Below are positions 6,447 through 38,000 of a stretch of 56,367 bases of DNA, piece by piece. The position numbers were made by a program, and so were the translations under genes. The stretch covers positions 10,402 to 66,768 of the forward strand of contig PATC01000014.1 of the NCBI GenBank assembly GCA_002712285.1, in the 5' to 3' direction. This DNA comes from Methanobacteriota archaeon (GTDB lineage Archaea; Thermoplasmatota; Poseidoniia; Poseidoniales; Thalassarchaeaceae). The notes under the pieces were generated by a model, which worked only from the letters and a program-made list of their open reading frames with translations, searched no databases and had not been told where the DNA came from. Numbering within the stretch: the stretch's first letter is position 1; every line of letters starts with the position of its first letter.

Positions 6447-6549
6447 CTTACTGAAAAGTTCTGTAGGAACAATCCAGTAAGCCGAGGGTTCCGGAATCAA
6501 TCCGGCTGGGGCCCAAAGGGCGGTAAGTTTAGTCTGATGTTCAGACTAA
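6447..6549. other. Cluster of hairpins at and downstream of the Ubl-gene stop (structured 3' region, terminator or ncRNA candidate)
   Basis: Inverted repeats: cttactg/cagtaag (6447-6481, inner gttc/gaac), ccgga/tccgg (6491-6505), gccc/gggc (6511-6521), and a perfect 9-bp ttagtctga/tcagactaa (6529-6549) that includes the stop codon. Confidence 0.4.
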
Positions 6550-6759
6550 TCCTGCGACCATATGGCGAGTCACGATAACTTCAGCATTGTCTGAGATGTC
6601 GATGTTTGCGAGGGCATCGCGACGAACCATGCGGTTGTCTACGAAGACCCAGCGCTCGCCATCCAGAGCATTGACTTCGGCACGGAGGGCATCCGCATCG
6701 AGGTTCGCTAGGACCGTGTCGCCAGTAAGGTCGTGGATCTTGAGAGTAATGTTGCTCAT
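6541..6759 (-). CDS. Small ubiquitin-like (beta-grasp, ThiS/MoaD/SAMP-like) protein, 72 aa, ending ...HMVAG-LV
   Basis: SD GGAGG lies upstream of ATG 6759. Pattern is N-terminal strand 'ITLKIHDLTGDT', helix, 'WVFVDNRMV', final strand 'AEVIVTRHMVAG', matching beta-grasp order. GC- and C-ending codon bias is visibly higher than in neighbours. E1 and JAB genes lie within 3 kb on the same strand. Confidence 0.7.
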   Translation of the reverse strand: MSNITLKIHDLTGDTVLANLDADALRAEVNALDGERWVFVDNRMVRRDALANIDISDNAEVIVTRHMVAGLV

Positions 6760-6849
6760 TCGATCTTCCTCCATTGTTGACGTCATTCATGTTCGTTCGT
6801 TTAGCGTCTTTGAGACAATAGTAGCTTGTATTGGGGGTATATCAATCAT

Positions 6850-8061
6850 TCAAGATTCGATAACATTGGCAACTAGACGATTGATGAGACCACCGAACTT
6901 GTCAGTGACTGTATTGACTCGTTGTCTACTCACGCAGAGTGCGGAACTAATTTTTTTGAACACACGCTGACGGCCCTTGTGTTTGTTCATTCGGTCACAG
7001 AAACTAGCGGCAACAGCCCTCATGTTCTCGCCTGAGAGGCCACGATCTTTGGAAGCAACTCGCATCAATCCTCCAAGAAGTCTAGTGAGACGTCGTCCTT
7101 CTACAGAACCATGAATCCTCTCCATCGAAGGACCGACACTTTCGAGGACGGCCATAATCTCTGCTTCAGTCCACCGTGGCCGACCCATTATTTGAGCAGC
7201 ATCGAAATTCAGAATACTAGACGTTCTCTTTAGCTTCATTTCTGCACTCAGAATACTTTTGAGGTAATTCAAGATATTTTTCTTTTCAGTATGGATTACT
7301 TTCGGACTAAGACCGAATTCTTTGGCGACACGTTCAACTGAGAATGGCCTACCAAGCATTCGTGCAGCAATTGACATTGCAGCTATTGCAGCAACTGTTG
7401 CCGATTCACCCTTGTTGTTTCGAATGATAGTCTTTTGATCGCCTTCTTTTTTGGTGAGAGCTTGAAGGTGGCGGACTTGATTCAGTGGATAAGAAGGCTT
7501 TCTTCCGCCATTGTTATCCATCATTTTCTTGATGAGTGCGTAGTCAGAAGAATGCCGATTTTCTGACACAAGGTCATGGGTATCGAGTAGGATGCAATTA
7601 GCAGTATCTTTTACCGAAGGCTCTCCTGGCATTCGGGAACTTTCAATGATACGTTGTGCATTGCGTCGTAGGGTCGGACGTTCCGCCAATTCATTTCGTT
7701 GAATAGTTAACAAGCGTTTGTGGTAAGAACGTGCTGAAGGTGATGCACTACCGTTTATCGGGCCATTCCAAGTTGCATATGGACAACTACCAAGCCGATT
7801 CTTGTCACTACGTGCATAGATATCTCGACCACGATTACCAAGGTCACGGCCTATGTTTTCAATATCCGAAACACCTTGAAACACATCACAGTCGTCAAGT
7901 ACATTCGAACGAATAACAATACCATCTACGGCGCAGACGATCTCTCCACGCACTGAATCTTCGATAAATTTAGACCCGCCACATTCTGGACAGATGTCTT
8001 CATCCTTAGTGGGTGCACTCTGTTCCTCCTCATTCCAACTATCATATTGCTCCTCTACTAT
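6850..8061 (-). CDS. Divergent transcription factor B (TFB/TFIIB) paralog
   Basis: Reading upstream of the track's GTG (7953), the frame continues as 'EDICPECGGSKFIEDSVRGEIVCAVDGIVI', a TFIIB Zn ribbon with the fourth ligand Asp. Two cyclin-repeat HTH segments follow ('AIAAMSIAARMLGRPFSVERVAKEFGLSPKVI', 'KISSALCVSRQRVN'). No in-frame ATG exists before the stop at 8104-8106; ATA at 8061 sits 5 nt after SD GGAGGTG. The start position is uncertain. Confidence 0.75.
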   Translation of the reverse strand: MVEEQYDSWNEEEQSAPTKDEDICPECGGSKFIEDSVRGEIVCAVDGIVIRSNVLDDCDVFQGVSDIENIGRDLGNRGRDIYARSDKNRLGSCPYATWNGPINGSASPSARSYHKRLLTIQRNELAERPTLRRNAQRIIESSRMPGEPSVKDTANCILLDTHDLVSENRHSSDYALIKKMMDNNGGRKPSYPLNQVRHLQALTKKEGDQKTIIRNNKGESATVAAIAAMSIAARMLGRPFSVERVAKEFGLSPKVIHTEKKNILNYLKSILSAEMKLKRTSSILNFDAAQIMGRPRWTEAEIMAVLESVGPSMERIHGSVEGRRLTRLLGGLMRVASKDRGLSGENMRAVAASFCDRMNKHKGRQRVFKKISSALCVSRQRVNTVTDKFGGLINRLVANVIES

Positions 8062-8102
8062 ACGAACACCTCCAACGCGGACTTTTTCATTTATATGATA
8101 TA

Positions 8103-8121
8103 GTTATTAAACCTTTTTCTT
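8103..8121 (-). promoter_or_regulatory. Putative BRE+TATA promoter for the TFB paralog
   Basis: Minus strand reads AAGAAAAAGG-TTTAATAA-C, a purine-rich BRE followed by a TATA box, in a very AT-rich 130-bp gap, about 40 nt upstream of the inferred start. Confidence 0.55.
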
Positions 8122-8222
8122 AAAACTACTATCATAGCACATACTTTTACAGTTATTACTCAATTCAGAGTAAATTTGTGCTAACAAGTGTTTATGGTAT
8201 TCAGGGTATTTAAATCAATGAT

Positions 8223-8849
8223 TTAGAGATACTCACACATTGGGTCCCATTTTGTAATCGGATTAGTTGCCAACTGCTGATTAAAAAGGCGCTCATCATC
8301 AGTTACGTCCTCTCCAATCCAATCAGGTATGTCATATGGTCTATCTCCTTCATATTCTATTTCGGCAATCTTGAGTCCTTCATTAGCTCCTTTGAATATA
8401 TCAAACTCCCAAATGTAGCCATCCTTTGCTGGGATTTCCCATCGTATCTTTTCAATTGATGGAAATTCAGTTCTGGACAACTGTTCCTGGACCCATGAAA
8501 TATCTGTATCTGAGAGTTCCCACCCCAGTTCGATTCCTTCATCTCCTATCTTTGGACCTTTGACCTCAAGTTTAGCCTTATGCTGATTTTTAATCCTTAC
8601 ACGTATTGCTGAACCCGGCAGTTCAAGTGTCTTCTCGAGCAGGCCACTCGTTCTCCATTCTATCTGTTCCAGTGTTTCTTCCGGAACACGTTTGTCCATC
8701 AAGAAGACCCCCTCATCGATCTTAATGCTCTCTACATCAAGGTACCATTGTTGTATATGTACTCCATTAATTTCTGGAATACCATCTTCCCATGGCAGTT
8801 TTCGAATGAGATGTTTACGTTCTTTCTCAATGGGTTCTTCACCAGCCAT
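8223..8849 (-). CDS. CYTH / triphosphate tunnel metalloenzyme (CyaB/NeuTTM-like)
   Basis: N-terminal ExExK 'IEKERKHLI', then 'IQQWYL', 'IRVRIK...KLEVKG', 'WEFDIFKGANEGLKIAEIEY' and 'PDWIGEDVTDDERLFNQQLA'. SD-like GAGGGGG precedes ATG 8849. Confidence 0.9.
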   Translation of the reverse strand: MAGEEPIEKERKHLIRKLPWEDGIPEINGVHIQQWYLDVESIKIDEGVFLMDKRVPEETLEQIEWRTSGLLEKTLELPGSAIRVRIKNQHKAKLEVKGPKIGDEGIELGWELSDTDISWVQEQLSRTEFPSIEKIRWEIPAKDGYIWEFDIFKGANEGLKIAEIEYEGDRPYDIPDWIGEDVTDDERLFNQQLATNPITKWDPMCEYL

Positions 8850-8893
8850 GCACTTTTCCCCCTCTGCTTTTTTGTTTGAAGGTTCCACTTATC

Positions 8894-9133
8894 TTACGTT
8901 TGGGATTCAGACCACTGATCATGAGTTTTGATGGCCTGAGTAATATCAACCGAATAAATCCCAGCAATACGACAGGCTTCGATATGACCTAGGATTACTT
9001 CAATCAACTCATTCGTGGGCTCTCTATCCAGATGTTGTTCAATCCATTCTGCTATAGATTGGCCTAAGTTATGCTGGTCAATTGTTTCCCTAAGACGACG
9101 AACATCATCGTCTTTTGGTATTTCGATTTTCAA
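8894..9133 (-). CDS. 79-aa hypothetical helical protein, translationally coupled to the JAB gene
   Basis: TTG at 9133 overlaps the JAB stop (TTGA) and follows GGTGGAG. Protein begins MKIEIPKDDDVRRL. No family recognised. Confidence 0.65.
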   Translation of the reverse strand: MKIEIPKDDDVRRLRETIDQHNLGQSIAEWIEQHLDREPTNELIEVILGHIEACRIAGIYSVDITQAIKTHDQWSESQT

Positions 9134-9630
9134 AACTCCACCCCCGAAATCACCGGATAATATTGGATTTCTTCCTCTGTCCACATATTGAGCGGGTCTT
9201 CAAGACCATCTGGCAAGGATTCACCCATTTTCAAACGACATCTGGATCGTTTCCAATGATCATGGCCGAGGACAATTGCCACCTCAATGAGGCCAGCGAA
9301 ATTACGTAATGTAGCCCGATCGGTAAATGACCAATAAGCAGTCCAAGGATGTGTGTGAATCCATAGTCTGAAAGGTAGTACTGCTCCGATGGGGGGAGAA
9401 AGTCGTACTTCTCCTGAAGAACCAAGGTCAACGAACACCGTACCATCAGCATCTCTAATCCAGCTAACTTCGATTCCTAATGCATGACTCACATTCCATA
9501 ATTCATTCCAACGCTCTTGGATGCCAAGAATGCGTAGTGATTCGATTACCTCATCTTCCTGGTGGGCCCCATTTCTGATTTTTTGACAGAGTTGCTTCGA
9601 ATCTATTTCAGAGGTTTCTAAAACAGTCAT
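9130..9630 (-). CDS. JAB/MPN (JAMM-type) metalloprotease
   Basis: Catalytic Glu candidate 'GIEVSW' and 'WIHTHPWTAYWSFTD' (H-x-H-x6-S-x2-D, one residue shorter than the usual x7). ATGA overlap with the upstream ThiF stop. Confidence 0.8.
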   Translation of the reverse strand: MTVLETSEIDSKQLCQKIRNGAHQEDEVIESLRILGIQERWNELWNVSHALGIEVSWIRDADGTVFVDLGSSGEVRLSPPIGAVLPFRLWIHTHPWTAYWSFTDRATLRNFAGLIEVAIVLGHDHWKRSRCRLKMGESLPDGLEDPLNMWTEEEIQYYPVISGVEF

Positions 9631-10493
9631 TCTCCTACCTCCGCATTTGCATTTTCACGACTCATTAGTCGTCTTAATCGATGGAATATAGCATTCGGAC
9701 TGCGGCCTAATTTTCTTGAAATATCATCGAAATTTTTCCCACTATTTTCAAAATCATCCAAAAGTGTCAGATCATCTTTGTCGGTCCATGGTTTAGTTGC
9801 TTGCAGAGCAATATTTTTCCTTGATTGAATCGGAGTCCCAAAGATGTCAATACGCCCTCTTGAGATAGAGTCACATATTGAATCCGGGAATTCAGTTTCT
9901 TGGCCACACCTTCGGAGTAAAGAACGCATGACAGCATCTGCAAGATGAACAGCAGCATTTGCAAATCCAAATTGGATTGCGCCAGATTCGATTGCACCTT
10001 CGGGTTGACAGCTTGCTGGTAGATGTTCAGGCGTTAACGCATCTACCATTTCAGTATCCGTTCTGTCTGAGAGGAGTAATGTGAAATCTCCCATACATCT
10101 TGAGTCATACCACTCTGTATTTCTGAGAGAATGGACAATTCGACGAGGCTCAGGTCGATCAACAGCTACAATCACAATATGCGCATTCGATAGCAAATTT
10201 GAGTCCCGGAGATTGATGCTGTGAGGGATTACTTGTACAGCAGAGTGAATGACGCCTAAAGTTTCAGCGAGAGCATCGACTTTTGCCATTCCGATTTGAT
10301 TCAGGGTGAACCGTTGATGTATAAGATTCTCTTCTTCGACTTTATCGGCATCATATAGATGAAATTCTATTTCACCTAGTTGTTCAGCCAGGACACCATT
10401 CCTTAGTGCATTCACAAGCAGAATACATGTGTTTGAGCCAATACCTCCTGCTCCTATTATGCTGATGTTCAGGGGTTCAGTATTCATGGACAA
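9627..10493 (-). CDS. ThiF/MoeB/E1-like adenylating enzyme with a C-terminal Myb/SANT-like HTH
   Basis: Rossmann 'IIGAGGIGS', 'YDADKVEEENLIHQRF', 'GMAKVDALAE', 'AVDRPEPR', and candidate thioester Cys in 'PASCQ'. No CxxC Zn pairs. C-terminus is 'KPWTDKDDLTLL...FDDISRKLGRSPNAIFHRLRRL'. Start could be 10487. Confidence 0.88.
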   Translation of the reverse strand: MSMNTEPLNISIIGAGGIGSNTCILLVNALRNGVLAEQLGEIEFHLYDADKVEEENLIHQRFTLNQIGMAKVDALAETLGVIHSAVQVIPHSINLRDSNLLSNAHIVIVAVDRPEPRRIVHSLRNTEWYDSRCMGDFTLLLSDRTDTEMVDALTPEHLPASCQPEGAIESGAIQFGFANAAVHLADAVMRSLLRRCGQETEFPDSICDSISRGRIDIFGTPIQSRKNIALQATKPWTDKDDLTLLDDFENSGKNFDDISRKLGRSPNAIFHRLRRLMSRENANAEVGE

Positions 10494-10561
10494 GTTGTAA
10501 AGGCATCACCCCCCTTAAACCAAACACAAAAAATATCGAAAGCCTCTGTCACTCCTTGTAG

Positions 10562-37417: not shown

Positions 37418-37586
37418 TTCGCCACCTTGGTGAGCGTTAGCGAAGTGAATTTTTGATTAGCCGAATCTTTGTATTCTGATACTAACCAATCAAGAGTTTG
37501 AAAACCGTGTGTAAGAATCCGAAGTCATGGGGGCTGGGGGCGGACCTCACATCAACGAGAAGGATCGGAAGCCTTGAGGTGAGACA

Positions 37587-38000
37587 ATGGCCGTTGAACT
37601 CTCTCGTAGAATTGATTGGCCAATGATTGACCCTGCCAATGTTGTCTACTACCCTCTGTATTGGGATCTAGCTCACAGATTCTTTGAGGAGTCCTGGGAG
37701 CTGATTTGTGGTATTGATTACCCAACAATAATTTCCGAACACCGTCTAGGATTCCCAGCAGTTGCTACTAATTCTACACATCATGCACCATTACGATACG
37801 GGGATACTGCACATTGCCGTCTTTGGGTCAAGGAAGTAGGAACATCATCAGTCGTATGGGAATACCGCTTTGATGATCAGAATTCGAATATTGTCTGGTC
37901 TGCTGAAGTAACTACAGTATGTGTCAATCTCGATGATTTCCAGCCTCAACCTATTCCCTCCAAGATTGCTGAATCTCTACGCAGATGCAGCGAGGATTGA
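37587..38000 (+). CDS. Hotdog-fold acyl-CoA thioesterase (4HBT/YbgC family)
   Basis: 'IDWPMIDPANVVYYPLYWDLAHRFFE', 'PLRYGD', 'VGTSSV'; SD GAGGTG upstream. Confidence 0.88.
   Translation: MAVELSRRIDWPMIDPANVVYYPLYWDLAHRFFEESWELICGIDYPTIISEHRLGFPAVATNSTHHAPLRYGDTAHCRLWVKEVGTSSVVWEYRFDDQNSNIVWSAEVTTVCVNLDDFQPQPIPSKIAESLRRCSED

Follow-up and report, generated by a model that had tools for sequence, protein, structure and literature searches.

The window analyzed here, a 56,367-nt stretch from a metagenome-assembled genome (MAG) of a Thalassarchaeaceae archaeon (Poseidoniales), encodes a divergent paralogue of the archaeal transcription initiation factor TFB whose reading frame contains no canonical start codon ahead of its N-terminal zinc ribbon. 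Comparison of this gene with its relatives makes it very likely that it works and that its translation begins ahead of the first ribbon motif (CPEC), at a non-canonical codon, and initiation driven by a Shine-Dalgarno (SD) sequence at an AUA codon (8061–8059) is the best candidate and the probable start. Near-cognate AUH start codons are listed in NCBI translation table 11 and are already known; what is notable here is a datable replacement of ATG by ATA in an archaeal transcription-factor paralogue. All coordinates refer to positions in the window, and the gene is read on the minus strand.

Reading Frame and Hidden Zinc Ribbon

Direct reading of the sequence showed a minus-strand frame (6850–8103) that is open between tandem in-frame stops (TAA TAA, 8109–8104) and a TGA (6852–6850), with the tandem stops ruling out an in-frame start further upstream or readthrough into the gene. 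The public gene call for this genome (P0014/P0003, 367 a.a) begins at a GTG (7953–7951), the first canonical in-frame start in the window gene. The frame extends 50 codons upstream of this GTG to the tandem stops, and none of the in-frame codons from 8103 to 7954 is ATG, GTG, or TTG. The extension encodes ...VRVGGVRIVEEQYDSWNEEEQSAPTKDEDICPECGGSKFIEDSV, with CPECGGSK at 7992–7969 (CPECGG at 7992–7975 and CPEC at 7992–7981), all upstream of the annotated start, such that the public call lacks the CPEC half of the ribbon. The near-cognate codons between the TAA pair and CPEC are ATA 8094, ATA 8061, AAG 8007, and ATC 7995. The second of these, ATA at 8061–8059, lies 36 codons upstream of the GTG and is separated by a TTCGT spacer (8066–8062) from a GGAGGTG (8073–8067). 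The coding sequence we propose, on the basis of TFB homology and of the selection analysis below, would start at this ATA and span 6850–8061 (403 codons, with the TGA stop at 6852–6850).

An earlier sequence-only reading of this DNA had put forward the extension of 36 codons encoding CPECGGSK, the lack of an in-frame ATG, GTG, or TTG before the TAA at 8104–8106, and the position of ATA 5 nt after GGAGGTG, each of which is borne out by the sequence. Its comparison site elsewhere in the window indeed has the same spacing, with a GAGGTG (37576–37581), a 5-nt spacer, and an ATG at 37587. The hidden zinc ribbon that it proposed (CPEC...CAVD, 7924–7992, with an Asp at the fourth ligand position) is likewise upheld, given the extension matched the Pfam Zn_Ribbon_TF model (PF08271; E 1.3e-5, 25.1 bits, below the gathering cut-off of 29) and the TFIIB-type ribbon of Pyrococcus furiosus TFB (1pft; E 3.4e-5 with the single sequence and 1.2e-7 with a family profile), and orthologues are called at 400–412 a.a with the ribbon included.

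Start Site in Orthologues and in the ATA Clade

Seven orthologues carry an ATG start (L003–L006, L028, L029, and L031; 74–79% a.a identity and 80% nt identity or less); this more distant set comprises four genomes of the same genus (74–76% a.a identity) and three sequences from metagenome assemblies. In a DNA alignment of the 5′ region, the ATG falls at exactly the column of the window's ATA in 7/7 orthologues. With its flanking codons, the start column reads CAT ATG GTG in L003, CAT ATG GAT in L004, GAT ATG GAT in L005, CAA ATG GTG in L006, GAC ATG GTA in L028, CAT ATG GAG in L029, and GAG ATG GAA in L031, compared to CGT ATA GTA in the window, and an SD-like element (GGAG, GGGAG, or GGAAG) precedes the start in each ATG-bearing orthologue. 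The other ATG in this region of the window (8090–8088) lies in another frame and gives only MKKSALEVFV before TAG TAG, as the sequence-only reading had stated. The equivalent site holds an in-frame ATG in L003 and L005, an ATA behind a stop in L004, and an out-of-frame ATG in L006, L028, and the window; given this variation in frame and presence, it is not the start of the family.

The window sequence and its near-identical relatives (15 further contigs from ENA, JGI, NCBI, and Logan assemblies) form three sub-lineages, namely A (the window and L015; 99.9% nt identity to the window), B (L014, L026, L027, and L032; 97.8%), and C (L016–L025; 93.9%), the last being the commonest and represented by ten of at least 23 contigs (ENA, JGI, and Logan), one of them 1.97 Mb and pilon-polished. 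In 16/16 of these sequences, the ATA lies within an invariant GGAGGTGTTCGTATAGTAG, and every complete open reading frame (ORF) among them is intact at 1251 nt. The ATA sequences were monophyletic (100/100 support) with synonymous divergence (dS) of 0.25–0.40 inside the clade, and the change from ATG to ATA appears to have occurred once, on the stem of the clade holding the window genome and its two sister sub-lineages.

The sequence-only reading had named a sequencing error or a recent ATG-to-ATA mutation as alternatives. With 16 sequences, drawn from many samples and assemblers and forming one clade, all carrying it, the ATA is neither a sequencing error, which the 15 further contigs from other assemblies reject, nor a private recent lesion. 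The mutation itself is upheld by the ATG of the orthologues, but its recency is not, the ATA having been fixed on the clade stem. Comparison with sister genomes at 8059–8061, as that reading had suggested, found ATA in all near-identical relatives, with no ATG and no indel restoring an upstream ATG. A 1-nt indel or assembly error that would restore the ATG at 8090 was rejected separately, as the same frame and the ATA occur in the 15 other contigs; the 1-nt shorter spacer of the window is also found in the ATG-bearing L028. Pattern scans for an ATG variant of a 28-mer found none in the collections scanned and yielded one more ATA contig (L032, from a metagenome collection), while a 28-mer scan of species-representative genomes gave zero matches.

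We did note that L028 (TARA scaffold_10539; P0004, 440 a.a), the nearest ATG-bearing orthologue, has a GC-rich, unrelated C-terminal extension of 38 residues in place of the conserved ...NVIES end, which is probably the result of a frameshift or a chimeric contig end.

Selection on the Region Lacking a Canonical Start

In sub-lineage C, the GTG at 7953 is replaced by the synonymous GTA, and the two candidates that follow read GTA/GTT and CTG; codons 73 and 130 (counted, as throughout this section, from the upstream stop) also change synonymously. The first canonical in-frame start in this sub-lineage is a TTG at codon 138, 101 codons past CPEC, and gene callers output products of 254–279 a.a. 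We computed the ratio of nonsynonymous to synonymous substitution rates (dN/dS) by region between the window and L016. Upstream of the ATA (codons 1–14, a short stretch), dN/dS was about 1.0–1.5; in the acidic tail (codons 15–36), it was 0.39 (seven nonsynonymous and two synonymous changes; P=0.41); in codons 37–137, it was 0.16 (11 nonsynonymous and 19 synonymous changes; P=3.7e-6); and in codons 138–417, it was 0.13. Codons 37–137 are therefore constrained without a canonical start, which places the beginning of translation at a non-canonical codon within the 37 codons from the TAA pair to CPEC. The claim that translation must start upstream without a canonical codon thus stands. Over the whole gene, dN/dS was 0.10–0.14 in the ATA clade and 0.10–0.13 among the ATG-bearing orthologues, indicating that constraint, including that on the zinc ribbon, has not relaxed since the loss of the ATG. 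A pseudogene was rejected on these same values together with the intact ORFs.

Under one rival explanation, the annotated GTG at 7953 or a later canonical codon (TTG or ATG further down) is the real start, and the upstream half of the ribbon is an untranslated relic; taken further, this explanation would make the gene a young pseudogene or the ATA an assembly error. The public calls (367, 279, 260, or 254 a.a) agree with it, and canonical-start rules favor them. We consider it highly unlikely, since the GTG is GTA in sub-lineage C, marking it as an internal Val codon (7951–7953), with codons 73 and 130 synonymously changed as well; since codons 37–137 are under the purifying selection noted above; and since the complete ORFs are all intact, the whole-gene dN/dS matches that of the ATG-bearing orthologues, and the ATA recurs across 16 sequences from many samples and assemblers. 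Half a ribbon, with CAVD but without CPEC, would also be structurally senseless.

Choice of the Initiation Codon

Genome-wide, SD core 5-mers ahead of the first ATG in long ORFs peak at positions −12, −11, and −10 (69, 54, and 32 occurrences, against a background of ~5–10). The GGAGGTG (8067–8073) with its 5-nt spacer to the ATA occupies exactly these peak positions; before canonical starts, GGAGGTG likewise shows a modal spacing of 5 nt (18/47). The paralogue subfamily described below uses GAGGTG, a 5-nt spacer, and ATG. The predicted duplex between SD and anti-SD was −15.8 to −16.4 kcal/mol in the ATA clade (−15.8 in the window), compared to −9.3 to −13.9 kcal/mol in the ATG-bearing orthologues, making the SD of the ATA clade the strongest in the family by predicted energy. 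ATA 8061 is favored because it is the positional homologue of the family ATG, with an SD at the modal spacing, the geometry of the paralogue SD, and the strongest predicted duplex.

Several points weigh against this choice. The 22-codon acidic tail from the ATA to ATC 7995 does not have a dN/dS significantly below 1 (~0.4, P=0.41), being too short and variable a stretch for constraint to show, and selection therefore does not prove that translation reaches back to the ATA. That the 19-mer around the ATA is invariant is unremarkable, as the whole 257-nt upstream region is only 7.4% different between clades. The duplex energies were calculated with an assumed anti-SD, the MAG having yielded no 16S gene. 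In sub-lineage B, a GTG located five codons before the ATA could act as the start. Finally, we know of no experimentally verified AUA start in an archaeon, and a search of a limited literature collection returned zero reports of non-canonical initiation in a TFB paralogue or of a verified archaeal AUA start.

A start at a different near-cognate codon in the 37-codon stretch is the foremost alternative, mainly ATC 7995–7993 directly before the first Cys codon (giving M-CPEC...), to a lesser degree AAG 8007 or ATA 8094, or the GTG in sub-lineage B. The ATC is kept in all three ATA sub-lineages and differs in the ATG-bearing orthologues, the tail between ATA and ATC is without demonstrable purifying selection, and AUC and AUA are comparably weak starts in E. 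coli; the GTG, for its part, has already been chosen by gene callers in sub-lineage B (P0025, 408 a.a). However, the ATC has only a weak AAGGA upstream, compared to the perfect 7-mer at the genome's modal spacing before the ATA, and it is the ATA, not the ATC, that is the positional homologue of the family ATG. The acidic tail is also equally variable in orthologues that certainly translate it, and the GTG of sub-lineage B has no SD and is absent from sub-lineages A and C. We therefore regard a start at one of these other codons as unlikely. For the sequence-only reading, which had proposed the ATA as the start, this means that the ATA holds as best candidate on its homology to the ATG and its ideal SD, while the selection data do not separate it from ATC 7995.

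Recoding offers a further route, either by a start at an out-of-frame AUG (8090 or 8045) with a −1 shift into the TFB frame or by termination of the mini-ORF and reinitiation at the ATA. The mini-ORF (MKKSALEVFV, 8058–8090) ends in a TAG (8060–8058) that overlaps the ATA in sub-lineages A and B and is closely preceded by an SD-like element, and a GAGGAG lies 4 nt upstream of the ATG at 8045, the first AUG downstream of the ATA, which opens an out-of-frame ORF of 39 codons (7926–8045). Conservation of these elements is poor, however. All that is left of the mini-ORF in sub-lineage C is an ATG TAA at a long distance before the ATA, and the ORF from 8045 in that sub-lineage is 64 rather than 39 codons long. 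From these AUGs to CPEC, there are zero X_XXY_YYZ slippery sites, the sole A_AAT_TTA (7971–7965) lying after CPEC and being absent in sub-lineage C. A −1 shift into the TFB frame would have to occur at GUA-UAG, which is unable to re-pair, and the proximal TATA-like block described below would place the transcription start downstream of ATG 8090. Recoding in either form is thus very improbable.

Several specific mechanisms were also tried and rejected. A −1 frameshift from the ATG at 8045, 8033, or 8003 (giving MKTS-CPEC) was set aside given the lack of a slippery site, a donor ORF that is not conserved, and no missing base in any assembly; the class of programmed frameshifts of the prfB/dnaX type, marked by a slippery site and a conserved donor ORF, was excluded on the same observations. 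Termination–reinitiation from the MKKSALEVFV mini-ORF as a general mechanism does not fit the bare ATG TAA of sub-lineage C, and the mini-ORF is not a conserved coupling device, given its ATG is homologous to the in-frame ATG of L003 and L005 and its ORF is reduced in sub-lineage C. A change of code (AUA read as Met) was rejected, as internal ATA codons align with I, V, or L, ATA makes up 14% of the Ile codons, and the tRNA set is ordinary.

If initiation occurs at AUA 8061, as we favor, the ancestral ATG would have become ATA on the clade stem with a perfect 7-nt SD (GGAGGTG) 5 nt upstream. Pairing between SD and anti-SD would then position the 30S subunit with the AUA (8061–8059) in the P site, where the initiator Met-tRNA would pair with it despite a mismatch at the third position, yielding a product of 403 residues (M-VEEQYDSW...CPECGG...) with a full zinc ribbon. 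We infer that the AUA, rather than another near-cognate codon, is used; output would presumably be below that from an AUG, and the stronger SD may be compensatory for the weak start. The possibilities predict different peptides. Initiation at AUA with Met predicts an N-terminal peptide (ac-)MVEEQYDSWNEEEQSAPTK or VEEQYDSWNEEEQSAPTK, elongation through the ATA predicts the tryptic peptide R|IVEEQYDSWNEEEQSAPTK in sub-lineage A or C (IVEEQ... preceded by R), and a start at ATC 7995 predicts MCPECGGSK.

Strict and relaxed scans of the MAG found no other convincing case of an SD with a near-cognate start. One locus of the same genome (C19:5754, plus strand) has a 272-codon ORF with a basic N-terminus, in which GGAGGGTGAATT-CTG directly follows an in-frame stop and no canonical start occurs before codon 15; this CTG is a possible second non-canonical start in the genome.

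A Divergent TFB Paralogue

Single-sequence searches with the protein detected the ribbon only. The NCBIfam TFIIB match covered the N-terminus only, and the Pfam TFIIB repeat model gave no match. When 1.84 billion cluster representatives were scanned with HMMER, 12 matched at E 1e-3 or better: members of the orthologue group, those of a paralogue subfamily (~30% identity), and, after these, canonical TFBs. The names of the orthologues are those of Poseidoniales and Thalassarchaeaceae (Marine Group II b), and the family is limited to a few Poseidoniales lineages; the genome separately encodes a canonical TFB of 311 a.a. Using a more sensitive comparison (hhalign), the family alignment of 18 sequences (A2) matched canonical TFBs, including the genome's own, with a probability of 99.1% (E 4.9e-19) over residues 22–395. 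The AlphaFold model (AF2) had a mean predicted local distance difference test score of 66.7, rising to 80–90 in the helical core, and its top 25 Foldseek matches in the PDB were all TFIIB, Brf1/2, or Pyrococcus TFB. The profile and structure comparisons together identify the two cyclin-fold repeats as homologues of the TFB core. On this evidence, the protein is a true but very divergent TFB paralogue of the TFIIB family.

Like archaeal TFB/TFIIB (Pyrococcus TFB; 1pft and 1ais), the protein has a predicted zinc ribbon at its N-terminus, then a region resembling the reader and linker, and two cyclin-fold repeats that both finish with a segment resembling a helix-turn-helix, with a near full-length profile match. 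Unlike these proteins, it has an Asp at the fourth ligand position, no recognizable B-reader of the EWRAF type, an insertion of ~45 residues, and a distribution limited to a few Poseidoniales lineages. The CxxC...CxxD pattern, with Asp in place of the fourth Cys, occurs in all orthologues, and this Asp is a putative zinc ligand. The Asp (C-x2-D; 7924–7935) is also found in one paralogue (P0029), the other paralogues having C-x2-C. Compared to canonical TFB, the ~45-residue insertion lies in cyclin repeat 1 (residues ~169–215; ~7380–7560) and contains an invariant PLNQxRH motif common to both paralogue subfamilies.

Comparison with Known Non-Canonical Starts

In E. coli, AUA, AUC, AUU, and CUG initiate at roughly 0.02–3% of the level of AUG, and infC and pcnB, both with AUU, are the only confirmed natural cases (10.1101/063800). 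Ribosome profiling of Haloferax volcanii placed ~30% of putative alternative start sites at near-cognate codons, which were set aside in that study (PMC7261190). As with infC (IF3) and pcnB, the gene described here is a conserved one without an AUG, GUG, or UUG start and, judged by selection, appears functional; the proposed AUH start would mismatch the initiator anticodon at the third position behind an SD, expression would be expected far below the AUG level (1–3% of it in E. coli), and gene finders misplace the start. It differs in its archaeal host, where start-codon checking is by aIF1/aIF2 instead of IF3, in its codon (AUA, not AUU), and in having no known autoregulatory logic. The change is also datable and young in evolutionary terms, not ancient, every relative at or below 80% nt identity having ATG.

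The combination of a weaker codon (ATA) with the family's strongest SD fits the published association in prokaryotes of weaker start codons with stronger, more conserved SDs (Belinky, Rogozin and Koonin 2017; PMC5622118). That study covers switches among AUG, GUG, and UUG only, unlike the switch to a non-canonical codon seen here.

Possible Meaning of a Weak Start

The sequence-only reading had suggested that non-canonical initiation keeps this TFB scarce or regulated, which is plausible. A stronger form of the idea, in which the AUA and its SD are a selected regulatory device rather than a tolerated lesion, seems to us doubtful. The AUU start of infC lets IF3 repress its own synthesis; were the AUA such a device, synthesis of the TFB paralogue would vary in an analogous way with how strictly start codons are checked (aIF1/aIF2 levels, stress), and the cell's translational state would thereby be coupled to the expression of an alternative factor for transcription initiation.

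The family amounts to a natural experiment, with ATG in every relative up to 80% nt identity and ATA in every one from 94% upward, undiminished selection, and a stronger SD. As cultivation-free comparative evidence that an archaeal ribosome can sustain a needed gene from an AUA start, it is among the cleanest obtainable. In public databases, calls for the ATA clade are truncated to 254–367 a.a, except for the GTG-start calls of sub-lineage B, and as the zinc ribbon is lost in the truncated calls, the family looks like a 'hypothetical protein'. This argues that, when MAGs of Marine Group II and other archaea are annotated, an AUH start preceded by a strong SD should be allowed wherever homology requires one.

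Promoter, Leader, and Gene Neighborhood

A proximal block resembling a TFB recognition element (BRE) and TATA box, (AAAAAG)GTTTAATAAC (8103–8113, minus strand), is conserved in the orthologue alignment. From the usual archaeal distance between TATA box and transcription start, transcription would begin near 8081, leaving ATG 8090 outside the mRNA. A distal perfect TATA consensus, TTTAAATA (8207–8214, minus strand), lies ~146 nt upstream of the TFB-like gene within a conserved TTTAAATACCCTG block that all orthologues share and that precedes the genes of the ~30%-identity paralogue subfamily as well. There are only three copies of TTTAAATA in the 1.7-Mb MAG, and a second of these is located 33 nt upstream of the canonical TFB gene (contig C17, ~14509; L002, ~1439–1446). 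The best TATA boxes in this genome thus belong to TFB-type genes.

Between the window and sub-lineage C, the 257-nt stretch preceding the ATA (8062–8318, minus strand) differs by only 7.4%, far below the 25–40% at synonymous sites of the gene, indicating that the promoter and leader are under constraint. In the leader, Rfam gave a chance sub-threshold match only, and the predicted fold was not significant (z = −0.9).

Gene order is kept in all contigs that we fetched (window 6541–10500; L015, L016, L029, and L031), comprising a ThiF-type E1, a 166-a.a protein, a 79–96-a.a protein, a 204–221-a.a CYTH-like protein, and the TFB-like gene, followed by a small protein of 72–81 a.a and then a divergent AhpC/Redoxin gene. 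Located beside this conserved ThiF-type E1 cluster, the lineage-specific TFB paralogue is a candidate specialized regulator of apparently low expression.

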